Positions 169 to 46,700 of a DNA stretch of 64,000 nt are shown piece by piece. Every line of letters starts with the position of its first letter. Position 1 is the stretch's first letter. The stretch is from Phyllobates terribilis (taxonomy: Eukaryota): assembly GCF_046119375.1 (NCBI RefSeq), contig NW_027362762.1, positions 354,516,001-354,580,000 on the forward strand, in the 5' to 3' direction. The notes under the pieces were generated by a model. The model was not told where the DNA came from, did not search any database, and saw only the letters and a program-made list of their open reading frames with translations. Made by a program: the position numbers and the translations under genes.

Positions 169-243
169 CAGACCACGGTTGGCAAGTTAGAACTGTAAGA
201 TTCACTACGTGAACCACTGGTGTTTTGTGGAAAAGCACATGTA

Positions 244-19287: not shown

Positions 19288-20257
19288 TACAGACCAAAGG
19301 TTTGGACACACCTTCTCATTTAAAGATTTTTCTATATTTTCATGACTATGAGAATTGTACATTCACAATGAAGGCATCAAAACTATGAATTAACACATGT
19401 GGAATTATATACTTAACAAAAAAGTGTGAAACAACTGAAAATATGTCTTATATTCTAGGTTCTTCAAAGTAGCCACCTTTTGCTTTGATGACTGCTTTGC
19501 TCACTCTTGGCATTCTCTTGATGAGCTTCAAGAGGTAGTCACCGGAAATGGTTTTCACTTCACAGGTGTGCCCTGTCAGGTTTAATAAGTGGGATTTCTT
19601 GCCTTATGAATGGGGTTGGGACCATCAGTTGTGTTGTGCAGAAGTCTGGTGGATACACAGCTGATAGTCCTACTGAATAGACTATTAGAATTTGTATTAT
19701 GGCAAGAAAAAAGCAGCTAAGTAAAGAAAAACGAGTGGCCATCAATACTAGAGTTTAGCCACCCCGTAGTGTTCGAGTTCTGTTCGGTTCGTCGAACACC
19801 CTTATGTTCGCCGAACTGTTCGTCGAGCTGTTCGTCGAACACAGTCGAACACCATTAAAACCAATGGCAGGCAAACAAAAACACATAGAAACACATAGAA
19901 AACACCTTCAAAGGTGTCCAAAACCTGACAAACTGCTCAGAAGACACAACTAACACATGGAAAAGTGACAAGTACATATAGTCATGCGAAAAGAAAAGAG
20001 GTGGAGGAGTAAAAGGAGGGGGAGACACAGATATAGGCATGTCATGCCCTTCTAAAACCAAAAAAGAAAAAAGTGCGAAGCTGACACGGCCAGTCCGTTC
20101 CTGCCCGTGTGACCACCATGTCGCCGGGTTTGTGCCAGAGCTGTGGTGGACCCTGATGGCCAGCCCCCCTCTCCCAATACTGGTGCCTGTCCACTGGTGG
20201 GTCGAGCAAGCCCCCCTGCGGTGGAGGCAGGTCTAAGATTTTTAATTTAAATTGTCT

Positions 20258-20535
20258 CTGTAATTTGAAAGAGTACACTTTAAATCCTTTTACAAGGATC
20301 TATTGGAGGGCAAGTCTGATTCCATCAGCCGCGGGAATTCCAGCTCCAGTAGCGTCCACTAAAGCTGCTGCAGTTAAAAAGCTTTTATAAGGATCGAGCT
20401 TGGCGGTCCTCCGCAAGGCGTCCTACCGCCAGTCCCAGCCCCTGTGCCTTGGGGTGCCTCCCCGATGCTCTTTATTGAGTGTCCCGGGGGCCCGAAGCAT
20501 TTCCTTTGGAAAAATGAAGGGTCCAAACTACAGGT
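20258..20535 (+). pseudogene. Degenerate 18S rRNA fragment captured in hAT-A
   Basis: CACTTTAAATCCTTT..AGGATC.ATTGGAGGGCAAGTCTG..CAGCCGCGG.AATTCCAGCTCCA.TAGCGT...TAAAG.TGCTGCAGTTAAAAAGCT follows the conserved vertebrate 18S sequence around the 530-loop equivalent and continues into V4/ES6. Confidence 0.92.
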
Positions 20536-20734
20536 GGTGTAGCTTGCTTAACAGGTGGGATAATCGGCTGAGGAGCAAACACTGCTACTAGGTCCAAAGT
20601 ATTTCCTGGGCTAGATGCAGTTAAAAATTTGTAATTAGATCTACAGGCGGTGGCTGCTCCGCTGACTAGCAGACACTACTACAAGGTCCAAAGTATTGCC
20701 TGGGCTAGATGCAGTTAAAAATTTGTAATTAGAT

Positions 20735-21480
20735 ACTCTCCTTGGATGCTGAGAAAGCATTCCATAGAGTCTCCTGGCATGCCATATATTACTCTCTTAA
20801 AAAGCTTGGGGTAGGGGTCTAGGGGACCCCTTTATAGCCAAAATAATGGCCCTGTATCGCAATCCGTCAGGTAGGCTGAAGATAAATGGAATATTTTCAT
20901 CTCCTTTCATAATCACCAATGGGACAAGGCAGTGATGTCCTCTGTCCCCTCTCTTATACATCCTAGTGATGGAGCACCTGCTCTCATCCATTCGCGATAA
21001 CCCCAATATTAGGTGGATTGAGGTGGGAGGCACCGAGTACAAGTGCTCTGCATTTGCTGATGATGTCCTAGTATATATCACTCAATCACAAATATCCATC
21101 CCTGCTGTTATGCCTGAAATAGATCACTTTGTTACATGGTCAAATTTTAAAATCAATGCAGCGAAGTCTGAGGCCCTTGGTGTCTCCCTCCCCCAATCCA
21201 TACAGGATTCCATCCAGTCCAACTTTCCCTTTGCCTGGCCCTCACAGGGTATCAAATACTTAGGAATTCGTATTCATAGAGACCTCTCCCGTCTATTTTA
21301 TCTTAATTTTGGGCCCTTTATTGAACAACTCCATAAAGATCTTACTTCTTGGACGGTGAAGGATTTTTCCTGATTCGGCAGAATAAGTATACTAAAAATG
21401 AAAATCCAACCTAAACTCTTATACCTCTTCCAAACCATTCCCGTGGTAATTCCCTCAAATTTTTGGAAAAGACTACGCAG
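20735..21480 (+). pseudogene. L1-clade LINE ORF2 reverse-transcriptase fragment inside hAT-A
   Basis: LDAEKAFHRVSW, GTRQ.CPLSPLL, ORF 20966-21373 with FADDVLVY and IKYLGI, followed by R-ISILKMKIQPKLLYLFQTIP. Confidence 0.9.
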
Positions 21481-21486
21481 TAGCTT

Positions 21487-21738
21487 TTAGTCTCCCCAGG
21501 ATGACACAGGTGGGGCAGATGGTGGTTGTCCCGGCCCGCTAGGCCGCATTGTAGCACAGTGAGCTTCGCACTGCAACTTATGCTTCATATCCATGTGACG
21601 GTTCATGCATGAAGTACTCAAACTATGTATTTTTTGGCCTCTACTTAGCTTTTGGTGACAAATGTTACAGATAACACGAGTTGGGTCATCCTTAGCGATC
21701 TGAAAAAATGCACAGGCTATGCAAGGTTTAGAGCCCAT
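21487..21738 (-). pseudogene. Internally deleted hAT transposase relic: BED finger joined in frame to the C-terminal PVSSWG
   Basis: 83-aa ORF MGSKPCIACAFF...CNIC...HMDMKH...PPSAP|PVSSWGD; both parts match the family transposase. Confidence 0.75.
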
Positions 21739-21911
21739 GCGACTCTGCTACTAGCAATACTATCAAATGATTGGCTGGGTTAGATGCAGAGCGTCTGGGT
21801 TTGGTTGGGGGTCCCCACAGTCTGCCTAGACTAGATGCAGTTAAAAATTCGCATTAGATACACAGGCGGTGCAGCTAGCTTCGCAGCTGGGCTAATACGC
21901 CCAAAGTATTG

Positions 21912-22110
21912 GTAGACTCTATACTAAATAAGGAAGGATTCACTGACTGTGGTGGCCCCTCCATGGGCCGTGGCGATTGGTGGAGATTTGGTGGATGATT
22001 ATAGGAGAAAGCTCCTTAATAGAGAAAGTTGGTGGATTTATACTTTAAATACACGTGTACCAGCGGGTTTAAACGTCAGCCATGATTTGATGTATCATTA
22101 TGAGTGATCA
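21912..22110 (+). pseudogene. C-terminal fragment of a Penelope-like GIY-YIG endonuclease ORF
   Basis: Translates ...RRKLLNRESWWIYTLNTRVPAGLNVSHDLMYHYE*, parallel to the PLE C-terminus at 61760-61867 (LLLMESRGIFTLCSVAPLGLNKEL). Confidence 0.7.
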
Positions 22111-22294
22111 TTTATAGATTATTGTTATATATATATGTTCATTTTTTCTTCTTTTCTTTTTCTTTTTGATTATTTACATTTATATGCATTGCTTCTATGC
22201 TATATGATTTTAACATGGTATGTGTGTTTACATTTCTGATTAACTCAGCCTTGAACAGGTGCATAGCAGGACATGACATATAAATACCACTTCC

Positions 22295-23136
22295 TTGCTG
22301 TTTTTTTGCTATGCAATGATTAAGAACTCGTATATATATTGTGCAGAAAGAAGGGTGAAAGTCCGCCCAGGCGGGAGGAAATTGGAGTTTCATAACACAT
22401 ATTTGAACTGGAGAGGTATTAGAGGCCTGCAATGGCCACAGGTACTAATGGAGGTAATCAAGGTAGGGAGAGAGGCTAGAGGTCCGGTCATCTTAGTTAT
22501 ACAGGCTGGGGGAAACGACATAGCTTATCACAAGAGCGCATAACGAATGGCAATAATGAAACTAGACCCTGAGCGCTTCAGAGAATTTTTCACAAAACTA
22601 ACTATAGTATGGTCAGAGATTGTGCCGAGAGCGGAATGGCAAGATGCGTGAGACATCACGGCCATCGAATGGACATGGCAGGTAATAAATATTCGGATGG
22701 CAATATTTATAAGAGACAGAGGCTGTGTAGTGATACGACACCGACAACTGGAAGGAGATAAAGCAGGCCTCATACGGCCCGACGGTGTTCACTTAATGGA
22801 TATTGGACTGGAAATATTACTGTCAGGACTCCAGGATGGAGTGGAACAAGCGTTAAGAGTGATGGATGGGGGTCGGAGTCCTGCATATAAGTAAGCAGGA
22901 TCCTCCGTTGCCTGGAAATAGAAAGGACATGTTGGAGAGTTACACTTGTTGGCCAACTTGCCGTTGTGGAGACTGGAGACACAGGGCATGTTGCAACAAG
23001 CTGAATTATTTTAGAAATAAAATGCATTTCTAATGGAATGAGTATAAACAGTTAATAAAGCTGTGAACGATCTTCACCCATCCAGTTGTAAGAGTTACAT
23101 GATTGTATTGTCAATGAAAGGGGGCGTTAGGGGGCT
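22295..23136 (+). pseudogene. SGNH-hydrolase ORF fragment and 3' end, probably from a DIRS/Ngaro-type tyrosine-recombinase retrotransposon
   Basis: ORFs 22295-22543 (WRGIRGLQW...LVIQAGGNDI, SGNH block III GxND) and 22697-22894 (PDGVHL, block V DxxH); followed by AATAAAGCTGTG. Confidence 0.65.
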
Positions 23137-23519
23137 GAGCGTCTGGGTTTGGTTAGGGGTCCCCACAGTCTGCCTAGGCTAGATGCAGTTAAAAATCATT
23201 ATTAGATACACAGGCGGTACAGCTTGCTTCGCAGCTGGGTTTCTACGCTGACTAGCAGACACTGAAGCTTTGGAGCAGACCTCTGAGTAAACAGCTCTTC
23301 AGACTCAACCATCTGTGTTACCCCAAGCCATAGTGTGTGTATTTTCTTACGGTTTAAAGGGGGGGGGGACCCAACCCACCTCTAATTGATGATGGCAACG
23401 TCACGTAAAACAAAGCAAGGGGACTCCAAAAAGAGTCTCCATTTTTTCCAAAAATTTGTGGCACAGACACCACTTAAGTGGCATCAATTGCCCCAGAGTT
23501 GCTTAAAACGGTGGGTTAG

Positions 23520-23930
23520 AATGAGTACCACACACTGGTACTATGCTCAAAATTATTTTCCAGACAAGATGCAGCTAAAAATTATTAGTAATTTGCAAGC
23601 TGGTGGAGCTTAGTATAGATGGCATAATAGAGTGAGTACCGCACTCTGCTACAGGCCCAAAATTATTTTCCAGACAAGATGCAGCTAAAAATTACTAGTA
23701 ATTTGCAAGCTGGTGGAGCTTAGTATAGATGGCATAATAGAATGAGTACCGCACACTGCTATTGGCCCAAAATTAATTTCCAGACAAGATGCAGCTAAAA
23801 ATCACTAGTAATTTGCAAGCTTGTGGAGCTTAGTATAGATGGCATAATAGAATGAGTACCGCACACTGCTACAGGCCCAAAATTATTTTCCAGACAAGAT
23901 GCAGCTAAAAATTATTAGTAATTTGAAAGC
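23520..23930. repeat. About 3.5 copies of a 110-bp repeat downstream of the hAT-A transposase, homologous to the satellite monomer
   Basis: CAGACAAGATGCAGCTAAAAAT recurs at 23561, 23671, 23781, 23891; shares AGATGCAG, TTTGCAA.CTG.TGGAG, AGTATAGATGG with the 109-bp monomer. Confidence 0.9.
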
Positions 23931-23972
23931 TTAAAACGGTTGGTGAGGTGATTTTACGAAATCCTCAAGCTT

Positions 23973-26341
23973 TTACTCTCCCCAGGATGACACAGGGGTA
24001 GAAAAGTCCTTGCGGATCCATGATTTGCTCATCTTTATGAACGTGAGTCTGTCTACATTCTCAGCGGACAGCCGCGTGCGCTTATCTGTCAGCACACCAC
24101 CAGCAGCGCTGAACACACGTTCTGAGAGAATGGTGGCTGCGGGGCATGACAAGATCTCCAAGGCGTAAGTGGCGAGCTCCGGCCATTTATCCAGATTGGA
24201 AGCCCAAAAAGAGCATGGGTCCAGTGACACAGTCATGGCTTCGATGTTTACTTGGAGATACTCCTGTACCATCGTCTCTAGGCGTTGACTATGTGTCAGA
24301 CTTCTTGTCTCCTGTGGCCTTGCAAAGGATGGGCTAAAAAAGCTGTGAAATGATTCCGCAAAATTGCTGTTACCAGCAGATACTGTGTTTCTGTTACGGT
24401 TTGAGTGCTGAACACTCGACAGTCCCACGGTTGGCAAGTTGGAACTGTGAGAATCACTACGTGCACCACTGGTGTTTTGTGGAAAAGCACATGTAAGATT
24501 CTGCAACAGTCTCTGCTGATACTCCTGCATGCGTGAATCCCTTTCTATGGCAGGAATGATTTCGGCAAAATTACTTTTGTACCGGGGATCTAAGAGTGTG
24601 GCAACCCAGTAGTCAGGATTATTTCGAATTCTGACAATTCGAGGGTCATGTTGCAGGTAGTGCAGCAAGAAGGCACTCATGTGTCTTGCGCATCCAGGAG
24701 CACCAAGTCCCTGTTGTGTTGGTGGCGAGGTAACAATCATGCTTCCTTCCTCTGCCCTCTCCCCCCAACCTCGCACAACAGAAATGTGATCAAGGTCTCC
24801 CTCATCTGATGGGTCTTCCATTACTTCGTCCTCCACTTATTCCTGTGCTCCTGCACCTTCCTCACTAGTTTGGCTGCTCCATGCGCCCTGGTAAATCCAT
24901 CTCCCCCACCCTCACATGCCTGCCGCCTTGGTGCTGCCGACCGTCTGGACCTTGCAGATGTTAGCCCTTCCGCATACAACTCCTCCTCCTCTACTTCCTC
25001 CACCTCCACCCCTTCTTGTCGCACCACCTGACTCCGAATTCTGTTAAACATGTGCTCCAGCATGTAAATCACCGGAATAGTCATGCTGATAATGGCATCG
25101 TCAGCACTAAACATCTTCGTCGCCATTTCAAAACTGTGCAGAAGGGTGCATAGGTCCCTGATCTGAGACCACTCCTCCAGCGTGATTTGCCCCACCTCTG
25201 GATCCCGTTGGCTCAGGCTATATGCCAGAACGTATTGCACCAGGGCTTCTTGGTGCTGCCACAGTCGCTGCAACATGTGCAGAGTTGAATTCCACCGGGT
25301 AGGCACATCGCATTTTAGCCGGTGAAGTGGCAGGCCCAACGACTTCGGTAGAGATGTAAGTCGCTGAGCTGCGGGATGCGAACGGCGGAAGTGAGCACAC
25401 AGCGACTGTGCACTCTGCAGAAAGCCATCTAGTCCGGCATAGTGGCCTAAAAATTGCTGGACAACCAGGTTCAACATGTGAGCCGTACAAGGCACGTGTG
25501 TGACATTGCCCCGGTGAAGCGCCGCACCGAGGTTTGCAGCATTGTCGCACACGGCCTTTCCTGGTTTCAGGTCCAGTGGAGACAACCATTCATGAAACTG
25601 GTTCTCCAGAGCTGACCACAACTCCTCAGCTGTGTGACTCACATTTCCCAGACATTTCAAAGTAAAAACCGCCTGATGACGTTGAGCCCTGCTGCCAGCA
25701 TAGTAAGGAGGTGTGCAGGATCCCTTCTGCGCAGTTAGAAAGCGTGTGGCATGACCAGACAGGCTTTGGGTGCAGGTGGAGGACCGAGAGGAGGTTGAGG
25801 AGGCAGAAGCAGTGGAGGAACTTTGAGATAAAGAGGATTGACGCACAACTCGTGGGGACGGCAAGACTTGGACAGCAGCCAGTTGTCCTGCTGTCACCAT
25901 AGTTACCCAGTGCCCAGTCAGCGACATGTAACGCCCCTGTCCATGCCTACTCGTCCAAGTGTCTGTGGTGAAATGCACCCTGTCACACACAGAGTTTCTC
26001 AAAGAAGCGGTGATGTTGTGTGCGACATGCTGGTGGAGCGCAGGCACACCTTTCTTTGAGAAGTAGTGCCGACTGGGCATCTGGTTCTGGGGCACTGCGA
26101 CGGACATAAGGTCTCGAAAATCTTCTGTGTCCACCAGGCAGAAAGGCAGCATTTCTGTAGCCAAGAGCTTGCAGATGGTGAAATTCAACCTCTTAGCTTT
26201 CTCATGCCTAGGAGGAAATGGTCTTTTACTTGTACACATCTGAGGGACCGAGGGCTGGCTATGGTGCTTAGACGGGGTTGAGTAGGGTGTCCCCGGCAAA
26301 CTGACGGTCTGTGAGGAAGATGCAGGCTGACATGTTAGGTT
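23973..26341 (-). pseudogene. hAT-A transposase, catalytic core and C-terminus (3' part, split by hAT-B)
   Basis: ORFs 23973-24836 and 24821-26341: TTDTW, VCDNAA, PCTAH, TRWNS, SERVFS, hATC domain. Confidence 0.92.
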
Positions 26342-26832
26342 TAGTGTTGAGCCACCCCCGTAGTGTTCGAGTTCGGTTCGGTTCGTCGAACACCCGTGTG
26401 TTCGCCGAACTGTTCGTCGAACACCTTCGAACACCGTTAAAACCAATGGCAGGCAAACAAAAACACATAGAAACACATAGAAAACACCTTCAAAGGTGTC
26501 CAAAAGCTGACAAACTGCTCAGAAGACATAACTAACACATGGAAAAGTGACAAGTACATATAGTCATGCGAAAATAAAAGAGGTGGAGGAGTAAAAGGAG
26601 GGGGAGACACAGATATAGGCATGTCATGCCCTTCTAAAATCCAAAAAGTGAGAAGCCGACACGGCCAGTCCGCTCCTGCCCGTGCCACCTCCGTGTCGCC
26701 GGGTTTGTGCCAGAGCCGCGGTGAACCCTAATGGCCAGCCCCCCTCTCCCAATACTGGTGCCTGTCCGCTGGTGGGTCGAGCGAGCCCCCCTGTGGTGGA
26801 GGCAGCTCTAAGCTTTTTAATTTAAATTGTCT

Positions 26833-27108
26833 CTCTAATTTGAATGAATACACTTTAAATCCATTTACAAGGATCTATTTTTAGGGCAAGTCTCATGCCA
26901 GCAGCCGCGTAATTCCAGCTCCAGTAGCGTCCACTAAAGCTGCTGCAGTTAAAAAGCTTTTATAAGGATCGAGCTCGGCTGTCCACCGCAAGGCATCCTA
27001 CTGCCAGTCCCAGCCCCTATGCCTTGGGGTGCCTCCTGATGCTCTTCACTGAGGATCCCATGGTCCCGAAGCATTTCCTTTGAAAAAATTAAGTGTCTAA
27101 ACTACAGG
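26833..27108 (+). pseudogene. Degenerate 18S rRNA fragment captured in hAT-B
   Basis: GGCAAGTCTCATGCCAGCAGCCGCGTAATTCCAGCTCCAGTAGCGTCCACTAAAGCTGCTGCAGTTAAAAAGCT; homologous to 20258-20535 at the same position relative to the element end. Confidence 0.92.
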
Positions 27109-27212
27109 TGGTGTAGCTTGCTTAACAGCCGGGATAATCCGCTGACTAGCAGACACTGCTACTAGGCACAAAGTATTTCCTGGGCTAGATGCAGTTAAAA
27201 ATTTGTAATTAG

Positions 27213-29033
27213 ATACTCTCGTTGGATGCTGAGAAAGCATTCCATAGAGTCTCCTGGCACGCCATATATGATTCTCTTAAAAAGCTTGGGGTAGGGGTCT
27301 AGGGGACCCTTTTATAGCCAAAATCACGGCCCTGTATCACAATACGTCACCTAGGCTGAAGATAAATGGAACTGTAGCACAGTGAGGGCTCGGTTGCTAC
27401 AGAGGTATTGCACCTCACTCAGAGGTGTGATATCTCACTCTCAGGTAAGGATGGAGTGTGGATCAAGACCCGACACCTGCATGCATTACACCACATTGCC
27501 GTGGGGCAGGGCGACCAATATGCCTCTGAGATGGGCACGACAGTCCCTGTCCCTGGCTGGAGTGGGGGGAGGGAACACTGAGGAAGGGGAACCCTGTAGT
27601 GCAGGAGCAGGGAGGAAGCAGTTCCTGGGTGCATTGAGAAGGGAGTATAAAAGGTGGGCACCATCTTAGTTCAGTGCAGAGAAGTCTGAGCAGAAGTGGC
27701 AGGGAGCAGGGGCTCTGCATGAGCTCTGCTCCGGAGGCGGGCCTAGTAACAGAGGCCCAGGCCTGGAAGAGGGAGAAGGAAGGAAGAGGAGCGGAGAAGG
27801 CTCCAGGAACGAGGAATGAAGGGATCCCAGGGGTGCGGACGGTCGTGTCGCCACCGCACGCCCGAATCCACCTGCGTGGAGGGGTCAGGCCAAAGGGGCA
27901 AACCGGTCCCCGAAACTAGTGGAGGCAGGAAACGACCCTCAGCTAGAAACCGGAGGCTGTGACATTTTATGTGGCGCAGCCCCTCGCTACACCCGCTAGG
28001 AAGGCACCACATAGGGTCAGGGAAACTGGCGCCAAGTTTACCAAGAGGAGGCCCGAGGCAGCCGGACAGAAGGGTTGGTAAGAAAGGCCAGACAAAGGAC
28101 ACACAAAGGGGGTCCTGTGAAGCGCTCCAAAGTTATCTGGGAGTTGTCTGAGCCCCTCACCTGGTGAGCACAGTACGACGTGAGCAGCCGTTACCTGCAG
28201 ACGTGGTCTGGATAATAAGAACTGTGAGTAAAGGCCCTGGACTGCATCACTGACTCCGTGTCGTTACTGCTGCTGCCCTGCACCATCACCCCCATCCTCC
28301 GCATACACTGCCCTGAGGCTATACTCCTCCTGTGGGGAGTTATGCTACGCTCTGCTGCACCCACAACACCAGCCTCAGCGGTCTGCCCTGCAGCGGCGGC
28401 TCACTCTGACCGCAATCCACGGGTGGCGTAGTCGGACATTTAAACATCAAAACCACATAAATAGTTCCGCCACTGGTTTGACCACCCTGAGCCACAGAAC
28501 CGGGTCGCCGCCACGAAGACTACAACCACCAGCATCCACCAAAAAGGGTCCGGCTCCGGGTGTCCCAAGGCCCAGGGGGTGCATCAGAAAATTTTCATCA
28601 CCTTTCACAATCACCAATGGGACAAGGCAGGGATGTCCTCTGTCCCCTCTCTTATACATCCTAGTGACGGAGCACCTGCTCTAATCAATTCGCCATAACC
28701 CCAATATTAGGTGGATTGAGGTGGGAGGCACCGAGTACAAGTGCTCTCTCTTTGCTGATGATGTCCTAGTATATATCACTCAATCACATATATCCATCCA
28801 TGCTGTTATGGCTGAAATAGATCACTTTGTTACATGGTCAAATTTTAAAATCAATGCAGCGAAGTCTGAGGCCCTCGATGTCTCCCTCCCCAAATCCATA
28901 TAGGATTCCATCCAGTCCAACTTTCCCTTTGCCTGGCCCTCACAGGGTATCAAATACTTAGGAATTCCTATTCATAGAGACCTCTCCCATCTATGTTATC
29001 TTAATTTTGGGCCCTTTATTCAACAACTCCATA
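27213..29033 (+). pseudogene. L1 RT fragment in hAT-B (27213-27372 plus 28587-29033), split by a solo LTR
   Basis: Collinear with 20735-21335; DAEKAFHRVSW before the insertion and FADDVLVY after it. Confidence 0.88.
27373..28586 (+). mobile_element. Probable solo LTR (Gypsy/ERV-like), 1,214 bp
   Basis: Absent from the homologous site in hAT-A (20890); begins TG(TAGCA) and ends CA; flanked by GAAC/GAAA (imperfect 4-bp TSD); TATAAAA at about 27646; tRNA-Ser PBS-like TGGCGTAGTCGG at 28424-28435. Confidence 0.75.
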
Positions 29034-29108
29034 CAGACCACGGTTGGCAAGTTAGAACTGTAAGATTCACTACGTGAACCACTGGTGTTTTGTGGAAAAG
29101 CACATGTA

Positions 29109-30482
29109 CACTGTGTTCCAAATTATTATGCAAAAAGTGTTTAGGAGTGATAAGGGAAGAATTTGTTTGTTTGTCAGTTAAACTCATTGATGGTGATGTG
29201 TGTCAGGGCTCTTTATATCACTGTAAGCAATTGCAGACACCAGTGCTAATTAGTTTGTCAGGTGTGTCCAATGAAAGGCAAGACTACTTAAGAAGGCTTT
29301 CTCACATTATTCAGCAGCCTACATTTTCTGCCAAAATGGGAAAGAAAAAGGATGTGTCGGCTGCTGAGAAGCAACAAATTGTGGAGTATTTAGGTCAAGG
29401 CATGACTACAATCAACATTGTGCGATGATCAGGATGAAGTGTCTTGGCAATCAAGAAGTATGTAGCTGATTCACAGTACACACGTGTGCGTGCTGATAAG
29501 GGCAAATTGAGGACTCTTTCCTACAGGCAATTACGTCAGGTTGAAAGAGCAGCGGCAAAAAAGACTTGTCATAGCAGCAGACAAGTTTTTGAAGCTGCTT
29601 GTGCCTCCAACGTCCCCCGAACAACAAAATGCAGGGTCCTTCAGAGGTTTGCAGCTGTGCATACGCCATCCTGTCGACCTCCTCTATCCACTTCCCACAA
29701 GCAGAAACGGCTCCAGTGGGCCAAACATTACATGAAGACTGATTTCAAAACTGTTTTGTTGACGGATGAGTGCCGTGCAGCGCTCGATGGTCCAGATGGA
29801 TGGAGTGGAGGATGGCTGGTTGATAGACACCCCACGCAAACACGGCTACAGCGCCAACAAGGAGGAGGTGGAGTAATGTTTTGGGCTGGAATCATGGGGA
29901 GAGAGATTGTCGGCCCCTTTAGGATCCCTGAAGGCGCTAAAGATGAACTCCATAATGTATGTGGATTTTCTCAAACAGCACTTCCTGCCATGGTTCAAGA
30001 AGAAGAACCGTGTATTTCACAGCAAGATCATTTTTCTGCATGATAATGCACCATCTCATGCTGCACATAAAACATCTGCATCTCTGGCTGATATGGGCAT
30101 AAAAGGGGACAAACTTATGGTGTGACCCCCATGCTCCCCTGACCTCTACCCCATTCAGAACCTTTGGAGCATCATTAAAAGGAGTGTCTATGATGGCGGG
30201 AGGCAGTTCACATCTAAGCAACAGCTCTGGGAGGGTATTCTGTCCTCATGCAAAACAATTGAAGCAGAAACCATCCAAAACCTGACAAATTCAATGGACG
30301 AGAGAGTTCAGAAGCTCCTTTCGAACAAGGGTTCCTATGTGAAAATGTAACATCACCTAGAATAAAGTTTTGAGATGAAAACTGTTTGATTTCAGTTTCT
30401 AACAACCTGCTAATGCTTATAATTTCAAAAATGACCATTTTTTTGGTCTTTATTAAAATGAAAAGGTTGATCGAAAAGTTTG
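29109..30482 (+). mobile_element. Dead DD37E (TRT) Tc1-like element inside hAT-B
   Basis: Collinear with 244-1617; disrupted ORF 29336-30350 with the same TGA and E-to-Q lesions and the same right-end truncation. Confidence 0.87.
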
Positions 30483-34624: not shown

Positions 34625-37600
34625 AGATGCAGAAAAAAATATATTCAGTTTGCAACCTGATGGAGGTCAGTATAGATGGACTAATAGAGAAAGTCCGACA
34701 CACTGCTACAAGGCCAAATATTTTTTCAGAGGTAGATGCAGAAAAAAATTATATTCAGTTTGCAACCTGATGGAGGTCTGTATAGATGGATTAATAGAAC
34801 AAGACCCACACACAGCTAGAAGCCCAATATTTTTTCAGAGGTAGATGCAGAAAAACATATATTCAGTTTGCAACCTGATGGAGGTCAGTATAGATGGACT
34901 AATACAACAAGTCCCACACACAGCTAGAAGCCCAAATATTTTTTCAGAGGTACTGTAGATGCAGATAAAAATTATTTTTAATTTGCAACCTGATGGAGGT
35001 CAGTATAGATGGACTAATACAACAAGTCCCACACACAGCTAGAAGCCCAAATATTTTTTCAGAGGTACTGTAGATGCAGATACAAATTATTTTTAATTTG
35101 CAACCTGATGGAGGTCAGTATAGATGGACTAATACAACAAGTCCCACACACAGCTAGAAGCCCAAATATTTTTTCAGAGGTACTGTAGATGCAGATAAAA
35201 ATTATTTTTAATTTGCAACCTGATGGAGGTCAGTATAGATGGACTAATAGAGAAAGTCCGACACACTGCTAGAAGGCCAAATATTTTTTCAGAGCTAGAT
35301 GCAGAAAAAAATTATATTCAGTTTGCAACCTGATGGAGGTCAGTATAGATGGATTAATAGAACAAGACCCACACACAGCTAGAAGCCCAATATTTTTTCA
35401 GAGGTAGATGCAGAAAAAAATATATTCAGTTTGCAACCTGATGGAGGTCAGTATAGATGGACTAATACAACAAGTCCCACACACAGCTAGGAGCCCAAAT
35501 ATTTTTTCAGAGGTACTGTAGATGCAGATAAAAATTATTTTTAATTTGCAACCTGATGGAGGTCAGTATAGATGGACTAATACAACAAGTCCCACACACA
35601 GCTAGAAGCCCAAATATTTTTTCAGAGGTACTGTAGATGCAGATACAAATTATTTTTAATTTGCAACCTGATGGAGGTCAGTATAGATGGACTAATACAA
35701 CAAGTCCCACACACAGCTAGAAGCCCAAATATTTTTTCAGAGGTAGATGTAGAAAAAAATATATTCAGTTTGCAACCTGATGGAGGTCAGTATAGATGGA
35801 CTAATACAACAAGTCCCACACACAGCTAGAAGCCCAAATATTTTTTCAGAGGTACTGTAGATGCAGATACAAATTATTTTTAATTTGCAACCTGATGGAG
35901 GTCAGTATAGATGGACTAATACAACAAGTCCCACACACAGCTAGAAGCCCAAATATTTTTTCAGAGGTACTGTAGATGCAGATAAAAATTATTTTTAATT
36001 TGCAACCTGATGGAGGTCAGTATAGATGGACTAATACAACAAGTCCCACACACAGCTAGAAGCCCAAATATTTTTTCAGAGGTACTGTAGATGCAGATAC
36101 AAATTATTTTTAATTTGCAACCTGATGGAGGTCAGTATAGATGGACTAATACAACAAGTCCCACACACAGCTAGAAGCCCAAATATTTTTTCAGAGGTAG
36201 ATGCAGAAAAAAATATATTCAGTTTGCAACCTGATGGAGGTCAGTATAGATGGACTAATACAACAAGTCCCACACACAGCTAGAAGCCCAAATATTTTTT
36301 CAGAGGTACTGTAGATGCAGATACAAATTATTTTTAATTTGCAACCTGATGGAGGTCAGTATAGATGGACTAATACAACAAGTCCCACACACAGCTAGAA
36401 GCCCAAATATTTTTTCAGAGGTACTGTAGATGCAGATAAAAATTATTTTTAATTTGCAACCTGATGGAGGTCAGTATAGATGGACTAATAGAGAAAGTCC
36501 GACACACTGCTAGAAGGCCAAATATTTTTTCAGAGCTAGATGCAGAAAAAAATTATATTCAGTTTGCAACCTGATGGAGGTCAGTATAGATGGATTCATA
36601 GAACAAGACCCACACACAGCTAGAAGCCCAATATTTTTTCAGAGGTAGATGCAGAAAAAAATATATTCAGTTTTCAACCTGATGGAGGTCAGTATAGATG
36701 GACTAATACAACAAGTCCCACACACAGCTAGAAGCCCAAATATTTTTTCAGAGGTACTGTAGATGCAGATAAAAATTATTTTTAATTTGCAACCTGATGG
36801 AGGTCAGTATAGATGGACTAATACAACAAGTCCCACACACAGCTAGAAGCCCAAATATTTTTTCAGAGGTACTGTAGATGCAGATACAAATTATTTTTAA
36901 TTTGCAACCTGATGGAGGTCAGTATAGATGGACTAATACAACAAGTCCCACACACAGCTAGAAGCCCAAATATTTTTTCAGAGGTAGATGCAGAAAAAAA
37001 TATATTCAGTTTGCAACCTGATGGAGGTCAGTATAGATGGACTAATACAACAAGTCCCACACACAGCTAGAAGCCCAAATATTTTTTCAGAGGTACTGTA
37101 GATGCAGATAAAAATTATTTTTCATTTGCAACCTGATGGAGGTCAGTATAGATGGACTAATACAACAAGTCCCACACACAGCTAGAAGCCCAAATATTTT
37201 TTTCAGAGGTACTGTAGATGCAGATACAAATTATTTTTAATTTGCAACCTGATGGAGGTCAGTATAGATGGACTAATAGAGAAAGTCCGACACACTGCTA
37301 GAAGGCCAAATATTTTTTCAGAGCTAGATGCAGAAAAAAATTATATTCAGTGTGCAACCTGATGGAGGTCAGTATAGATGGATTAATAGAACAAGTCCCA
37401 CACACAGCTAGAAGCCCAAATATTTTTTCAGAGGTACTGTAGATGCAGATACAAATTATTTTTAATTTGCAACCTGATGGAGGTCAGTATAGATGGACTA
37501 ATACAACAAGTCCCACACACAGCTAGAAGCCCAAATATTTTTTCAGAGGTAGATGCAGAAAAAAATATATTCAGTTTGCAACCTGATGGAGGTCAGTATA

Positions 37601-40600
37601 GATGGACTAATACAACAAGTCCCACACACAGCTAGAAGCCCAAATATTTTTTCAGAGGTACTGTAGATGCAGATACAAATTATTTTTAATTTGCAACCTG
37701 ATGGAGGTCAGTATAGATGGACTAATACAACAAGTCCCACACACAGCTAGAAGCCCAAATATTTTTTCAGAGGTACTGTAGATGCAGATAAAAATTATTT
37801 TTAATTTGCAACCTGATGGAGGTCAGTATAGATGGACTAATAGAGAAAGTCCGACACACTGCTAGAAGGCCAAATATTTTTTCAGAGCTAGATGCAGAAA
37901 AAAATTATATTCAGTTTGCAACCTGATGGAGGTCAGTATAGATGGATTAATAGAACAAGACCCACACACAGCTAGAAGCCCAATATTTTTTCAGAGGTAG
38001 ATGCAGAAAAAAATATATTCAGTTTGCAACCTGATGGAGGTCAGTATAGATGGACTAATACAACAAGTCCCACACACAGCTAGAAGCCCAAATATTTTTT
38101 CAGAGGTACTGTAGATGCAGATAAAAATTATTTTTAATTTGCAACCTGATGGAGGTCAGTATAGATGGACTAATACAACAAGTCCCACACACAGCTAGAA
38201 GCCCAAATATTTTTTCAGAGGTACTGTAGATGCAGATACAAATTATTTTTAATTTGCAACCTGATGGAGGTCAGTATAGATGGACTAATACAACAAGTCC
38301 CACACACAGCTAGAAGCCCAAATATTTTTTCAGAGGTAGATGCAGAAAAAAATATATTCAGTTTGCAACCTGATGGAGGTCAGTATAGATGGACTAATAC
38401 AACAAGTCCCACACACAGCTAGAAGCCCAAATATTTTTTCAGAGGTACTGTAGATGCAGATAAAAATTATTTTTAATTTGCAACCTGATGGAGGTCAGTA
38501 TAGATGGACTAATACAACAAGTCCCACACACAGCTAGAAGCCCAAATATTTTTTCAGAGGTACTGTAGATGCAGATAAAAATTATTTTTAATTTGCAACC
38601 TGATGGAGGTCAGTATAGATGGACTAATACAACAAGTCCCACACACAGCTAGAAGCCCAAATATTTTTTCAGAGGTACTGTAGATGCAGATACAAATTAT
38701 TTTTAATTTGCAACCTGATGGAGGTCAGTATAGATGGACTAATACAACAAGTCCCACACACAGCTAGAAGCCCAAATATTTTTTCAGAGGTAGATGCAGA
38801 AAAAAATATATTCAGTTTGCAACCTGATGGAGGTCAGTATAGATGGACTAATACAACAAGTCCCACACACAGCTAGAAGCCCAAATATTTTTTCAGAGGT
38901 ACTGTAGATGCAGATACAAATTATTTTTAATTTGCAACCTGATGGAGGTCAGTATAGATGGACTAATACAACAAGTCCCACACACAGCTAGAAGCCCAAA
39001 TATTTTTTCAGAGGTACTGTAGATGCAGATAAAAATTATTTTTAATTTGCAACCTGATGGAGGTCAGTATAGATGGACTAATAGAGCAAGTCCGACACAC
39101 TGCTAGAAGGCCAAATATTTTTTCAGAGCTAGATGCAGAAAAAAATTATATTCAGTTTGCAACCTGATGGAGGTCAGTATAGATGGATTCATAGAACAAG
39201 ACCCACACACAGCTAGAAGCCCAATATTTTTTCAGAGGTAGATGCAGAAAAAAATATATTCAGTTTGCAACCTGATGGAGGTCAGTATAGATGGACTAAT
39301 ACAACAAGTCCCACACACAGCTAGAAGCCCAAATATTTTTTCAGAGGTACTGTAGATGCAGATAAAAATTATTTTTAATTTGCAACCTGATGGAGGTCAG
39401 TATAGATGGACTAATACAACAAGTCCCACACACAGCTAGAAGCCCAAATATTTTTTCAGAGGTACTGTAGATGCAGATACAAATTATTTTTAATTTGCAA
39501 CCTGATGGAGGTCAGTATAGATGGACTAATACAACAAGTCCCACACACAGCTAGAAGCCCAAATATTTTTTCAGAGGTAGATGCAGAAAAAAATATATTC
39601 AGTTTGCAACCTGATGGAGGTCAGTATAGATGGACTAATACAACAAGTCCCACACACAGCTAGAAGCCCAAATATTTTTTCAGAGGTACTGTAGATGCAG
39701 ATAAAAATTATTTTTAATTTGCAACCTGATGGAGGTCAGTATAGATGGACTAATACAACAAGTCCCACACACAGCTAGAAGCCCAAATATTTTTTTCAGA
39801 GGTACTGTAGATGCAGATACAAATTATTTTTAATTTGCAACCTGATGGAGGTCAGTATAGATGGACTAATAGAGAAAGTCCGACACACTGCTAGAAGGCC
39901 AAATATTTTTTCAGAGCTAGATGCAGAAAAAAATTATATTCAGTTTGCAACCTGATGGAGGTCAGTATAGATGGATTAATAGAACAAGTCCCACACACAG
40001 CTAGAAGCCCAAATATTTTTTCAGAGGTACTGTAGATGCAGATACAAATTATTTTTAATTTGCAACCTGATGGAGGTCAGTATAGATGGACTAATACAAC
40101 AAGTCCCACACACAGCTAGAAGCCCAAATATTTTTTCAGAGGTAGATGCAGAAAAAAATATATTCAGTTTGCAACCTGATGGAGGTCAGTATAGATGGAC
40201 TAATAGAGAAAGTCCGACACACTGCTAGAAGGCCAAATATTTTTTCAGAGCTAGATGCAGAAAAAAATTATATTCAGTTTGCAACCTGATGGAGGTCAGT
40301 ATAGATGGATTAATAGAACAAGACCCACACACAGCTAGAAGCCCAATATTTTTTCAGAGGTACATGCAGAAAAAAATATATTCAGTTTGCAACCTGATGG
40401 AGGTCAGTATAGATGGACTAATACAACAAGTCCCACACACAGCTAGAAGCCCAAATATTTTTTCAGAGGTACTGTAGATGCAGATAAAAATTATTTTTAA
40501 TTTGCAACCTGATGGAGGTCAGTATAGATGGACTAATACAACAAGTCCCACACACAGCTAGAAGCCCAAATATTTTTTCAGAGGTACTGTAGATGCAGAT

Positions 40601-41892
40601 ACAAATTATTTTTAATTTGCAACCTGATGGAGGTCAGTATAGATGGACTAATACAACAAGTCCCACACACAGCTAGAAGCCCAAATATTTTTTCAGAGGT
40701 AGATGCAGAAAAAAATATATTCAGTTTGCAACCTGATGGAGGTCAGTATAGATGGACTAATACAACAAGTCCCACACACAGCTAGAAGCCCAAATATTTT
40801 TTCAGAGGTACTGTAGATGCAGATAAAAATTATTTTTAATTTGCAACCTGATGGAGGTCAGTATAGATGGACTAATACAACAAGTCCCACACACAGCTAG
40901 AAGCCCAAATATTTTTTTCAGAGGTACTGTAGATGCAGATACAAATTATTTTTAATTTGCAACCTGATGGAGGTCAGTATAGATGGACTAATAGAGAAAG
41001 TCCGACACACTGCTAGAAGGCCAAATATTTTTTCAGAGCTAGATGCAGAAAAAAATTATATTCAGTTTGCAACCTGATGGAGGTCAGAATAGATGGATTA
41101 ATAGAACAAGTCCCACACACAGCTAGAAGCCCAAATATTTTTTCAGAGGTACTGTAGATGCAGATACAAATTATTTTTAATTTGCAACCTGATGGAGGTC
41201 AGTATAGATGGACTAATACAACAAGTCCCACACACAGCTAGAAGCCCAAATATTTTTTCAGAGGTAGATGCAGAAAAAAATATATTCAGTTTGCAACCTG
41301 ATGGAGGTCAGTATAGATGGACTAATACAACAAGTCCCACACACAGCTAGAAGCCCAAATATTTTTTCAGAGGTACTGTAGATGCAGATAAAAATTATTT
41401 TTAATTTGCAACCTGATGGAGGTCAGTATAGATGGACTAATACAACAAGTCCCACACACAGCTAGAAGCCCAAATATTTTTTCAGAGGTACTGTAGATGC
41501 AGATACAAATTATTTTTAATTTGCAACCTGATGGAGGTCAGTATAGATGGACTAATAGAGAAAGTCCGACACACTGCTAGAAGGCCAAATATTTTTTCAG
41601 AGCTAGATGCAGAAAAAAATTATATTCAGTTTGCAACCTGATGGAGGTCAGTATAGATGGATTAATAGAACAAGACCCACACACAGCTAGAAGCCCAAAT
41701 ATTTTTTCAGAGGTAGATGCAGAAAAAAATATATTCAGTTTGCAACCTCATGGAGGTCAGTATAGATGGACTAATACAACAAGTCCCACACACAGCTAGA
41801 AGCCCAAATATTTTTTCAGAGGTACTGTAGATGCAGATAAAAATTAGTTTTAATTTGCAACCTGATGGAGGTCAGTATAGATGGACTAATAT
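34625..41892. repeat. Tandem satellite of 109-115 bp monomers (about 65 copies, 7.3 kb) with higher-order structure
   Basis: Same monomer as 5760-8245 plus an ACTGT-insertion variant; the marker variant GAGAAAGTCCGACAC recurs at spacings 563, 1241, 788, 564, 1241, 788, 334, 788, 564. Confidence 0.97.
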
Positions 41893-42810
41893 AATGATGC
41901 TATGCCCAAAAGATTTTACTTCACTAGGTGCAGTAAAAAAATTGGTATTCTATACACAGGTGGTATATCTTGCAGCACAGATAGGCTACTCCACTGACTA
42001 ACACACTCTGCAATAGGCCAAAAAGGATTAGCTTTGCTAGATTCAGCCAAATGCTGTGAAAAAAACTTGCACAGCACTGGCACAGACCTGCCTAGCAAAA
42101 ACTGATAGGAACTGATGTAACCTAGTCCTGAAAAGGACTCCAATTACAATTAGTCTTTACTCCCACAACCTATCTATTTAAGAGCACAGACCTCCATGAT
42201 AAAAGTCGTAGGAAATGCTGTAACCTAGTCCTTAAAAGGACTGCAATCACAACTATTCCCTACTCCCAAGCTATCGGTATATTTGTGCGAAAATTGGCTT
42301 GAAAATAACAAGGTATAGCGCACACAGCAACAGCGGTGCCGTCTAACATGCAGCTGCAGCAGTGAGAAAATGGTGGCGACGGGGAAAATGGCTTGGTCTT
42401 ATAGGGCAAGGACATGTGACATACACTGCCAATGACACATGCCCTTGCTTGTGTGAAAAAAAGCACTTCGCTCCGTGTGTGCGCTGCTGATAGGCTGACA
42501 GATTGCACCTCCCCACTGCAAATGCGGGAAAGAGAAAAAAAAATGGAGATCTTCATTGTTCCTGCAGAGATCCATCCCCTGCCCCTCCCCCCACCCCGCT
42601 GTACACTCAAACTGCGTATTAACATTAATTTTCATCATTACTGAGAAAAAATCCAGTTATAATTTTGGTGCACGAACAGTTATCGAACATAACCTCGAAC
42701 AGCCGAATTTTTATCAAATTGTTCGTGTTCGCCGAACGGCTCGAACACCGCACAAAACAGCTCGAATTTGAGATTGGCGAACAGTTCGAGTAGAACAACG
42801 CTCATCTCTA

Positions 42811-44155
42811 GTTAGGTTGCCTTGATCCAAAGGTGGTGCTCTCGATGTCGGAGAGCGCTCAACACCAGCTGGTGTTTCCACCTCCAAATAAAATGATGAC
42901 CTGCCAATCAAGCTGGCTGTTGCGGGTAAAGAGGTGGCAGGTCTGCGTCCCAAAACAGGTGTGACTGCTGTCCCCCAGTCACAGAGGATGAAGAGGCCGT
43001 GGATGCACAAGATGGGGCAGACGGTGGTTGGCCCGGCCCGCTAGGCCGCATTGTAGCACAGTGAGCTTCCCACTGCAACTTATGCTTCATATACATGTGA
43101 CGGTTCATGCATGAAGTACTCAAACTATGGGTTTTTTGGCCTCTTCTTAGCTTTTGGTGACAAATGTTACAGATAACACAATTTGGGTCATCCTTATCGA
43201 TATGAAAAAATGCCCAGGCTATGGAAGGCTTAGCACCCATGCGACCTTAAGAGCCACCACGACTTGTGGTCAGAGGCAGAGTTGTGTTTGAGGATACAGT
43301 TGTTGACGTGCTTCCAGTACTGTGTCTCTGTCCAGGAAGGCACAACCTGACTTCGTCGTCACTAGCATACTCCTCCACCTCCTCTGCTGACCTCATCGAC
43401 TGGCTGACTGTGGGTTGACAGTAAGTGGGTTCTGCAACTTCTTCATCATCACCCTGTGTGTTCTCACACCCATCGTCCTCAGAGCCAACCTCTTCCTGCC
43501 CTGACAAAAAACTCAAGTTGTCGCTCCAATCAGGTATTTGAGTCTCATCATCGTCTTCCTCATTGTCTCCACCAACAGGAGTTACAGTATGGGAACGAGG
43601 GTCTACATTATGGTCAGAACCTTCTGCATCTGGTCCTGGATCCGACTCATAAAGATTCTGGGCATCAGTGCAGATCATTTCCTCGTCTGGATTCACAGAA
43701 GCTCTGGAGCCGACCTCTGATACCCAGGCTATAGTATGAGTAAACAGCTCTGCAGACTCAACCATCTGTTCTACCCCATACTCAGATGGGCAGCTGGAGA
43801 CTTGGGAGCTGTGAGGAAGCAAGTGCGATTGGGGTGACACCTCTGAGGACTGGAGTATTTGTGATGTTGAAGTTGAGGTGGAGGAGAGCCCACTTAAAGG
43901 AGCACTTGATATCCGTTGAAGCACCTGCTGTTTTTGTGCCTCATCTGAAATTTGTAGTGATTGGCTTGGCCGTAAGAAAGGGATCGTATCACATTGTCCG
44001 CTAAAAGAAGTAGACTTCTTAGTTTGGCTGGAAGATGGTCTTTCTTCTGTAGATGTTACTGTTGCTTTAACACCTACCCCACGGACACAACCTTTTTTTC
44101 CCTTCCCAACACGCCTATTCCCCTTTCCACCAGCAGCAGGCCTTTTTCCATTAAT
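42811..44155 (-). pseudogene. hAT-A transposase N-terminal part (acidic region and BED finger); start codon mutated ATG to ATT
   Basis: ORFs 43247-43924, 42908-43240, 42714-43010; collinear with 33165-34507. Confidence 0.9.
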
Positions 44156-46700
44156 TTTGGTGGTTAACTAATTGACAACTCTGGAGTTGTTTGCACAGAA
44201 AACGATGGATGGCAACCGAGCAGAGCTGAGTGGCCAAACTGTGGTATTAGCCCAAAAGGATTGGCTGCGTTAGATGCAGTAAAACAATTTTATTACATAC
44301 ACAGGTGGTGGAGCTTAGTTTAGATGGACTAATAGAATGAGTCCCACACACTGCTACAAGCCCAAAACTATTTTCCGAGCTAGATGCAGATAAAAATTAT
44401 TTGTAATTTGCAAGCTGGTGGAGCTTAGTATAGATGGCCTAATAGAATGATGCTATGCCCAAAAGGTTTTACTTGGCTAGGTGCAGTAAAAAAAAATTTA
44501 TTCTATACACAGGTGGTGTAGCTTGCAACACAGATACGCTACTCCACTGACTAACACACACTGCAAGAGGCCAAAAAGGATTTGCTTAGCTAGATTTAGC
44601 CAAATGCTGTGAAAAATACTTGCACAGCACTGGCACAGACCTGCCTGGCAAAAAGTCCTAGGAAATGCTGTAACCTAGTCCTCAAAAGGACTGCAATTAC
44701 AACTAGTCCCTACTCCCAAGCTGTCTATTTAAGAGCACAGACCTGCCTGCTAAAAGTCGCAGGAAATGCTGTAACCTAGTCCTCAAAAGGACTTCAATTA
44801 TAAGTAGACCCTACTCCCAACCTATCTATTTAAGAGCACAGACCTGCCTTCTAAAAGTCGTGGGAAATGCTGTAACCTAGTCCTCAAAAGGACTGCAATC
44901 ACAACTATTTCCTACTCCCAAGCTATCTGTATATTTCTGAGAAAATTGGCTTGAAATTAACACTGAAAGTATAGCGCACACAGCAACAGCGGTGCCGTCT
45001 AACACGCAGCTGCAGCGGTGAGAAAATGGTGGCGACGGGGAAAATGGCTGGGTCTTATAGGGCAAGGACATGTGACATACATAGCCAATGACACATGCCC
45101 TTGCATGTGTGGAAAAAAAGCAGTTCACTCCATGTGTGCGCTTCTGATAGGCTGACAGATTGCACCTCCCCACTGTAAATGCGGGAAAGAGAAAATAAAA
45201 TGGAGATCTTCATTATTTATGCAGAGATCCATCCCCTGCCCTTCCCCCTGCCCCGCTGTACACTCAAACTGCGTATTAACATTGATTATCAGCATTACTG
45301 TGAAAAAATCCAGTTATGATTTTGGTGCACGAACAGTTATCGAACATAACCTCGAACAGCCGGATTTTTTTCAAATCGTTCGTGTTCGCCGAACGGCTCG
45401 AACACAGCTCAAAACAGCTCGAATTTGAGATTGGCGAACAGTTCGAGTCGAACACCGCTCATCTCTAATCATTACTTTAAGAAATGAAGGTCAGTCAGTC
45501 CGAAAAATTGGGAAAACTTTGAAAGTGTCCCCAAGTGGAGTTGCAAAAACCATCAAGCGCTACAAAGAAACTGGCTCACATGTGGACCGCCCCAGGAAAG
45601 GAAGACCAAGAGTCACCTCTGCTTCTGAGGATAAGTTTATCCGAGTCACCAGCCTCAGAAATCACAGGTTAACAGCAGCTCAGATTAGAGACCAGGTCAA
45701 TGCCACACAGAGTTCTAGCAGCAGACACATCTCTCCAACAACTGTTAAGAGGAGACTTTGTGCTGCAGGCCTTCATGGTAAAATAGCTGCTAGGAAACCA
45801 CTGCTAAGGACAGGCAACAAGCAGAAGAGACTTGTTTGGGCTAAAGAACACAAGGAATGGACATTAGACCAGTGGAAATCTGTGCTTTGGTCTGATGAGT
45901 CCAAATTTGAGATCTTTGGTTCCAACCAACGTGTCTTTGTGTGACGCAGAAAACGTGAACGGATGGACTCTACATGCCTGGTTCCCACCGTGAAGCATGG
46001 AGAAGGAGGTGTGCTGGTGTGGGGGGGCTTTGCTGGTGACACTGTTGCGGATTTATTCAAAATTGAAGGCATACTGAACCAGCATGGCTACCACAGCATC
46101 TTGCAGCGGCATGCTATTCCATCAGGTTTGCGTTTAGTAGGACCATCATTTATTTTTCAACAGGACAATGACCCCAAACACTCCTCCAGGCTGTGTAAGT
46201 GCTATTTGACCAAGAAGGAGAGTGATGGGGTGCTACGCCAGATGACCTGGCCTCCACAGTCACCAGACCTGAACCCAATCGAAATGGTTTGGGGTGAGCT
46301 GGACCGCAGAGTGAAGGCAAAAGGGCCAACAAGTGCTAAGCATCTCTCGGAACTCCTTCAAGATTGTTGGAAGACCATTTCTGGCGACTACCTCTTGAAG
46401 CTCATCAAGAGTAGAGATGAGCGGTGTTCGACTAGAACTGTTCGCCAATCTCAAATTCGAGCTGTTTTGGGCGGTGTTGTTCGACGAACCCGAACGATTT
46501 GCAAAAAATTCGGCTGTTCGAGGTTATGTTCGATAACTGTTCGTGCACCAAAAGCGTGTTCTGCATGTCTGGCGCTATTTAGAGCACCAATCATGCAGGG
46601 ATTGTCTGCCACTCACTGTAATGCCACAGCCATGGTGGTTGTGGCATTACAGTGATTGCCCAAATCGATGGGAACAGTGCCAACAGTGAAACATGAAAAG

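Follow-up and report, generated by a model that had tools for sequence, protein, structure and literature searches.

A stretch of 64,000 nucleotides from the genome of the frog Phyllobates terribilis (assembly GCF_046119375.1, contig NW_027362762.1, positions 354,516,001 to 354,580,000 of the forward strand), hereinafter the window, contains four members of a single hAT transposon family, namely, a copy cut by the left edge and the elements designated A, B and C. The family consists of hATs of ~9-12 kb, many of which retain a transposase frame of full length; they occupy tens of thousands of sites, and the foreign pieces located 3' of the transposase gene (the cargo) travel with the element. 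A first-pass annotation, made from the sequence of the window alone, had assigned A, B and the left-edge copy to one family with the same ends, and the ends, the target site duplications (TSDs) and the cargo were all recovered where it had placed them; the terminal motif that it quoted differs from the left terminus of A, which reads TAGAGTTTAGC instead. The members of the family and their main parts are the following (window positions).

19749-45467, hAT-A, 9,242 bp net of B; TSD with 1 mismatch
19741..19748 (+), left TSD of A, ATCAATAC; right copy ATCATTAC at 45468-45475, 1 mismatch
19749..26341, left arm of A: terminus, cargo region and 3' two-thirds of the transposase gene
42811..45467, right arm of A: 5' part of the transposase gene, short repeat tract and terminus
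23973..26341 (-), 3' part of the A transposase gene, continued at 42819-44155; broken, interrupted by B
23517..23931, 110-bp repeat units in A, adjoining the transposase gene on its 3' side; further units, degenerate, occur among the cargo pieces
26342..42810, hAT-B, 16,469 bp, nested in the transposase gene of A
26334-26341 and 42811-42818, exact TSD of B, GTTAGGTT
30808..34507 (-), B transposase gene; three frames in B, 1233 amino acids (aa) open in other copies
34624..41891, tandem array in B, 7,268 bp of 110/115-bp units, upstream of the transposase gene
1..9161, right 9.2 kb of the left-edge copy; the complete B-type element is 11,696 bp; TSD CTGACAGA
46412..50650 (-), subfamily C element, non-autonomous and palindromic, with the family ends; TSD ATCAAGAG, exact

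The terminal inverted repeats (TIRs) are 12 bp long and imperfect (9 of the 12 positions match), and motifs are repeated in the subterminal regions, a feature of the hAT superfamily. The 8-bp TSDs that the annotation had placed outside all the cargo of both A and B are exact in B and contain one mismatch in A. Empty sites of both A and C are visible in an uninterrupted paralogous Tc1 at 56697-57640, and the target of A occurs once in the paralogous Tc1 at 56697. The interrupted Tc1 itself (DD34E-like; 19244-19748, 45468-46411 and 50651-50904) is split by two family members. Copies of subfamily C (window 46412-50650; L118, L121, L123 and L128-L134) are 3.8-6.7 kb long and largely palindromic, contain 200-bp repeats, and make up about one fifth of the left ends.

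The length of B is not typical. Its array accounts for 44% of the element and is the longest of 45 measured (one copy counted twice), with a median of 1,276 bp, so the 16.5 kb of B is an outlier due to the 7,268-bp satellite. The median length of B elements is 11.2 kb, as estimated from paired end positions for the 37 of the 46 B-classed left ends that have a partner; the longest paired lengths are probably mispairings or nests. In the range of 9-16 kb originally proposed for the mobile composites, the upper limit is set by satellite expansion rather than by cargo. Across the family, the satellite spans 0.3-7.3 kb (in the window, 34624-41891 and 5759-8245), with higher-order periods of 224 and 339 bp, and the element carrying it thus seeds 110/115-bp arrays genome-wide.

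Transposition of the whole composite

The searches of the assembly started from the left end of B and from the cargo block of A, which yielded at least 40 matches each (95-99%) on many contigs, and 20 loci were fetched per query; the reversed-pattern controls for all exact-pattern searches gave 0 matches. All 20 B-end matches run on into the L1-type piece and the solo long terminal repeat (LTR), and 19 of the 20 run on into the Tc1; the LTR is absent from this query and the L1-type piece is barely included in it. Among 44 end pairs, 38 have an exact TSD, four have a TSD with one mismatch, and two are unmatched, so that 42 pairs show the 8-bp duplication expected of a hAT; both unmatched pairs are outer elements of nests, and one of them is explained by a tandem duplication. 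Cargo-bearing end pairs show a TSD in 25 of 27 cases. Moreover, the flanks of 17 complete copies are mutually unrelated. The entire composite transposes as a unit and, because the TSDs differ and the flanks are unrelated, segmental duplication is excluded as the general cause of the shared cargo. The distinct TSDs also show that transposition followed cargo gain, as in the Pack-TIRs discussed below. The original proposal that the mobile unit is the whole composite, with its own transposase and subfamily-specific 3' cargo, is borne out by the ends, the TSDs and the unrelated flanks. Both findings that would have spoken against it were sought: duplications extending beyond the TIRs and TSDs are contradicted by the 17 unrelated flanks, and the 90 left ends that were classified, out of the first 100, include no transposase-bearing copy devoid of cargo.

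A mobile 25.7-kb super-composite, that is, A with B inside, was considered and rejected: at other loci, the same site holds different inner (B, C) and outer (B and the related B') types, and insertions at the nest site occur in both orientations. The nest site belongs to a cluster. A 31-bp segment of the family's own transposase gene contains 13 nested ends at 12 loci; the site GTTAGGTT (26334-26341 in the window) is filled at eight loci, in both orientations, and three more insertions lie 2 bp away (hot-spot loci: the window, C11:449.36M, C1:777.03M, C5:625.36M, C2:354.27M, C2:172.15M, C3:455.82M and C5:583.84M). The single control segment of 31 bp has 5 nested ends at 4 loci, with at most 2 per site, and the rough expectation is ~5 per segment and 0.17 per site. 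The site is a half match to the target consensus of the family, and a full match 14 bp away is unused. The cluster is a local hot spot; general self-homing was rejected since the 5 nested ends in the control segment equal the expected ~5.

Cargo composition and order of acquisition

The cargo of A and B comprises the following pieces.

20133..20530 (+), 18S ribosomal RNA (rRNA) fragment in A, degenerate; Rfam match at 20133-20399
26832..27100 (+), 18S fragment in B; model positions ~500-780
20735..21488 (+), L1-type reverse transcriptase (RT) fragment in A, an internal piece of a long interspersed element (LINE) with both ends truncated
27215..29037 (+), L1-type fragment in B, interrupted by the solo LTR
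27372..28586 (+), solo LTR in B; 4-bp TSD (GAAC in most copies); empty site in A and B'
29109..30482 (+), dead DD37E Tc1 in B; TA and left TIR retained, right end lost; micro-inversion and frameshift
21905..22300 (+), Penelope-like 3' fragment in A; weak match only
22330..23130 (+), SGNH/GDSL hydrolase fragment in A, from a Ngaro/DIRS-type element; shared with subfamily D
21490..21743 (-), embedded piece of the family's own transposase gene in A, internally deleted; ~91% to the main gene
29038..29108 (-), embedded transposase-gene fragment left of the B Tc1
30483..30605 (-), embedded transposase-gene fragment right of the B Tc1; 89-93% to the main genes

The 18S and RT fragments reported for both A and B were confirmed by matches to Rfam RF01960 (67.5 bits) and Pfam RVT_1 (8.6e-13), respectively; the label L1, which relies on characteristic motifs, is presumably correct. 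The dead DD37E Tc1 of B and the left-edge copy was also correctly recognized: it has the HTH_Tnp_Tc3_2 and DDE_3 domains, 37 residues from the second D to the E position, a TA target and a TIR. The solo LTR attributed to B is indeed there and is present in the left-edge copy as well, where it accompanies the 18S, L1-type and Tc1 pieces. By contrast, the labels of the two pieces assigned to A only are weakly supported, namely, by a 21-residue match of the Penelope piece to the window's own GIY-YIG element and a GDSL match with E 0.049 for the SGNH piece, and the restriction to A fails for SGNH, which is found in subfamily D too. In D, this piece adjoins a tyrosine recombinase (Pfam PF00589, 3e-6), hence its assignment to a Ngaro/DIRS-type element.

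Four of the five kinds of cargo are transposon debris, and 18S alone is host-derived. All cargo frames are broken. Two pieces bear marks of their own insertion: the Tc1, with TA and the left TIR, and the solo LTR, with the 4-bp TSD. The Tc1 occupies a TA located in an embedded piece of the family's transposase gene; its right end is missing, along with flanking letters. The embedded transposase pieces at the cargo junctions run collinear with the main gene, to which they are 87-94% similar. No exon cargo was found among the loci read, and pattern search for a host ribosomal DNA (rDNA) parent of the 18S piece found nothing.

A free copy of the DD37E Tc1 with both TIRs is present at L193, and palindromic derivatives of its 3' half are found at L075 and L200 (left of the window; C1:22.67M). 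The GC-rich stretch 26700-26750 preceding the 18S match shows very high contig depth in the public run X17 and may be derived from rDNA.

The cargo states are nested. The 18S and L1-type pieces are common to A, B' and B; B' has the Tc1 in addition; B has the cargo of B' and the solo LTR inside the L1-type piece, and most B copies share the micro-inversion in the Tc1. There are 45 copies with both the LTR and the inversion, eight with neither, one with the LTR without the inversion, and none with the inversion without the LTR; eight further rows, in which the left junction or the view is missing, were left unclassed. The nesting shows that 18S and L1 came first, followed by the Tc1, the LTR and then the micro-inversion. 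A contig from X17, a run of another organism, spans the empty LTR site and contains the Tc1 uninverted, which fits the pre-LTR state in a relative; such contigs show presence only. In a quick version of the phylogenetic tree, B and B' formed one clade (support of 99 in the Shimodaira-Hasegawa-like approximate likelihood ratio test, SH-aLRT) and D another (99), with A outside; the tips of A and D are longer than those of B and B'. Divergence within B is 1.1% for the transposase gene, 1.3% for the L1-type piece, 1.3% for the Tc1 and 1.9% for the LTR, and these similar values imply that the four parts were amplified together. Individual copies also contain new, unshared LTR-type insertions, often in the transposase gene. 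Subfamily D carries a longer Ngaro/DIRS-type piece (tyrosine recombinase and SGNH), of which A has the SGNH part only, behind the Penelope-like piece.

Transposase, copy number and age

The transposase is a 1233-aa BED/DDE protein with the Pfam domains zf-BED and Dimer_Tnp_hAT that matches Hermes structures (E 2e-19). The closest proteins are frog 'ZBED4/6-like' ones from several families (35-50% identity) and one newt protein, and plant proteins of the Ac/RICESLEEPER type are among the distant matches. The target consensus is nTnnnnAn, with T at position 2 in 36 of 40 sites and A at position 7 in 37 of 40, which we take to be that of the Ac family of hAT. By every feature tested, the element is a hAT. 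An open frame of 1226-1233 aa was found at 14 loci, all of the B type, five of which belong to the unselected sample of 40; among the 20 A-selected loci, none has a long frame of its own. The known DDE and CxxH motifs are complete in nine of the 14 open frames. For nine intact B copies, the ratio of nonsynonymous to synonymous polymorphism (pN/pS) is 0.84 at a pairwise distance of 1.1%, as expected of neutral decay after a recent burst. The estimated ages are ~2 million years for B, ~5 for B' and ~6-7 for A, on a scale that borrows the Xenopus rate of ~3e-9 per site per year (quoted in PMC9250109) and uses uncorrected distances.

The first-pass annotation was right that a family of composites exists, and greatly underestimated its scale. 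In the 10.57-Gb (gigabase) assembly, exact patterns retrieved 84,022 left ends, 68,568 non-C right ends, 40,634 B/B' cargo junctions and 514 A junctions; A is rare, and there is none among 40 unselected right ends. A 20-mer from the dead Tc1 occurs 62,450 times. Of the first 100 Tc1 matches on contig C1, 71 lie at the set distance from a junction and 13 at that from a left end; of the other 16, once fetched, 14 proved to be embedded in a hAT and two are free copies. Thus, ~98% of the Tc1 matches ride inside the hAT, with a 95% interval of 0.2-7% for the proportion of free copies. The share of the family in the assembly is estimated at 0.46 Gb from the junction count to 0.69 Gb from the Tc1 count, or 4.3-6.5%, assuming 11.2 kb per copy, mostly full-length copies and that the first 25 Mb of C1 are typical.

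By position, 50 of the first 100 left ends belong to B or B'; 40 of the other 50 were fetched and include 15 C, 11 B, 6 D, 4 B'-like, 2 Tc1-deleted B and 2 unclear copies. Subfamily D (L125, L140, L144, L152), ~7% of left ends, has a Ngaro/DIRS-type piece of 2 kb and a transposase gene that is inverted and truncated at its 5' end, and some D copies share further LTR insertions. In a recurrent derivative of B (L145, L154, L043), a deletion between embedded fragment and gene took out the Tc1 and, with it, the C-terminus of the transposase. A B copy at L026/L202 (C3:299.66-299.68M) sits in a related hAT with 69-75% DNA identity, which indicates that sister hAT families exist in the genome; no ends could be recognized in this relative.

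Origin of the cargo and related elements

We favor, with a probability of about 0.7, a scenario in which the cargo accreted stepwise, persisted through a survivor effect and hitchhiked on a hAT that moves as a whole. The likely course is a gradual build-up by ordinary insertions and by recombination between copies. Other elements would have inserted 3' of the transposase gene and then been trimmed by deletions, and the apparent bay would reflect survival only, given that neither the gene nor the termini are damaged by what lands downstream of the stop codon and short of the element end. The collinearity and 87-94% similarity of the embedded gene fragments suggest that intact genes acquired the left arms of copies that were dead and had suffered deletions, through template switching or ectopic recombination, probably with help from the 110-bp repeats. 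The pieces of 18S, L1, Penelope and Ngaro would have entered likewise, or by gap filling; in this scenario, the cargo is neutral baggage that the latest burst, that of B, multiplied.

Several points weigh against this scenario. No insertion marks are left on the pieces of 18S, L1 and Penelope, all of them internal fragments, and direct gap-filling capture fits them as well; the degenerate 110-bp units next to several pieces could denote an active rather than passive capture site. No cargo-free ancestor was found among the classified left ends, and most forks of the quick tree other than those named are open. Furthermore, the competence of the transposase is presumed from open frames, the sampled loci come from the initial 13-25 Mb of contig C1, and haplotypes may be duplicated in the assembly, as L035 and L036 share a flank.

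The strongest alternative, which we nevertheless consider unlikely, is true Pack-type capture, whereby the 3' repeat tract would be fragile or recombinogenic and break repair would recurrently draw in plentiful templates such as rDNA, retroelement DNA or complementary DNA. It would account for the pieces that lack their own ends, for the degenerate 110-bp units that separate 18S from L1 and flank the Penelope-SGNH block on either side, and for the short shared letters at some junctions, and gap filling is the accepted route for animal Pack-TIRs (PMC8277862). However, the history of the family includes ~5 gains, each fixed in a subfamily, as opposed to many one-off captures, the Tc1 and the LTR carry the marks of ordinary insertion, exon cargo is lacking among the loci read, and deletion after ordinary insertion also yields internal fragments, as at the right end of the Tc1. 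Given the predominance of transposon debris, two pieces of it with insertion marks, and a single host-derived piece, the initial interpretation of the family as one that captures genomic fragments in the manner of Pack elements is not supported as regards the main process.

Slightly more doubtful is the idea of an evolved, actively capturing bay in the 3' repeat tract, with the hAT as a bulk carrier whose load itself aided the burst. Were it true, a single burst of an 11-kb composite would have added >0.5 Gb and produced 98% of the copies of a Tc1 family, which multiplied without any Tc1 activity. It is improbable that the cargo benefits the element, for example by changing its silencing or transcription, with the gain of the LTR triggering the B burst. 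The heaviest load is found in the youngest subfamily, by far the largest one, and Tc1-less derivatives are rare (2 of the 40 fetched), but these derivatives also lack the transposase C-terminus, which explains their rarity, the cargo-free C elements spread well (15 of 40), every cargo frame is broken, and a single lineage cannot separate cause from coincidence. Finally, despite the shared flank of L035 and L036 and the tandem duplication at one locus (C1:777.03 Mb), segmental duplication or assembly error as the source of the shared cargo is virtually refuted by the TSD and flank results, with copies on many large contigs, homology ending at the element termini, an empty site, and up to 92% of the sequence words present in public runs of the same organism (which may include the source sample). 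Horizontal transfer was rejected as a reading: runs of other organisms (B-E) contain 70% of the words, but depth in X9 and X11 is flat and low, the RNA run of the X9 sample gave 5 weak reads, and the signal, which looks like carry-over DNA, was not used as evidence. No RNA run is listed among those that contain the words.

The 1723 element of Xenopus laevis is 6-10 kb long and has hAT-like ends, an 8-bp TSD and internal tandem repeats of varying number, and is not known to carry foreign cargo. This likeness to 1723, an element that the literature search did not retrieve, suggests that size and satellite content alone do not make a frog hAT novel. No description of the present family was found in the literature, with Repbase and Dfam outside the comparison and most subscription papers outside the search. 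The Ac-type hAT-10 of Xenopus (PMC9250109) likewise has a single BED-finger transposase (1033 aa), short TIRs and a long non-coding part; unlike the family here, no cargo of other elements is described for it in the available text. Tan et al. 2021 (PMC8277862) reported 370 Pack-TIRs in 100 animals, of which four (1.4%) are multicopy, with ~3-5 copies; the median insert is 224 bp, and the carriers are short relics. As in our family, foreign DNA lies between TIR ends; the commonest carrier is hAT, and frog hATs with distinct TSDs are among the few multicopy cases. By contrast, the family has ~3.6 kb of mostly transposon-derived cargo, a full transposase gene and at least 40,000 copies. Pack-TIRs carry gene fragments without a transposase and captured host sequence with an identifiable parent, for which the 18S piece is the sole candidate here. 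The family works like a multicopy Pack-TIR and by definition is not one, as the transposase is kept and the cargo is mostly transposon debris.

In maize, Ds2/Ds-like elements (PMC3260210) have hAT ends around filler and nested LTR elements, up to 12.7-24 kb; unlike the family here, they are non-autonomous and of low copy number, and the large ones are mostly single later insertions. In MER6 (PMC6887750), a piece of an element spread on a DNA transposon, in that case a small non-autonomous Mariner derivative. The transposons on Starships and the 14-kb ToxhAT (PMC13004909, PMC12506042) are further cases of an element piece or a cargo gene spread on a DNA transposon, but they are fungal and their cargo is live. 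The available text of a review of giant transposons (PMC6431247) does not mention hAT, and the available portions of PMC10946416, PMC10794172 and PMC12822217 describe no such element. According to that review, transposition efficiency drops above ~6 kb of cargo, and nevertheless a cut-and-paste element of ~11 kb is present here in at least 40,000, probably ~60,000, copies. This number contrasts with the almost always single-copy cargo-bearing TIR elements of 100 animal genomes (PMC8277862).

What is notable is the product of size and copy number with a full transposase frame retained, together with the passenger effect on repeat annotation. One family directly contributes an estimated 0.46-0.69 Gb to a 10.6-Gb genome, and its Tc1, LINE, LTR and Ngaro passengers would score as recent bursts of their own classes in repeat landscapes, a bias that may bear on studies tying anuran genome size to recent retrotransposon activity (PMC12822217). 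With its many open-frame copies, the family offers for experiments a vertebrate hAT whose natural loads are large.

Other repeats surround the family members in the window. The DD34E-like Tc1 paralog (56248-57912) itself interrupts another repeat (55852-56249 / 57871-58658, matching 62434-63646). A broken Penelope-like element at 58923-61867 has RT-like frames and a GIY-YIG domain (Pfam 1.3e-4), a further Tc1/mariner-type transposase frame of 320 aa lies at 15635-16597 (minus strand), and a 31-bp minisatellite of ~35 units occupies 51048-52131.

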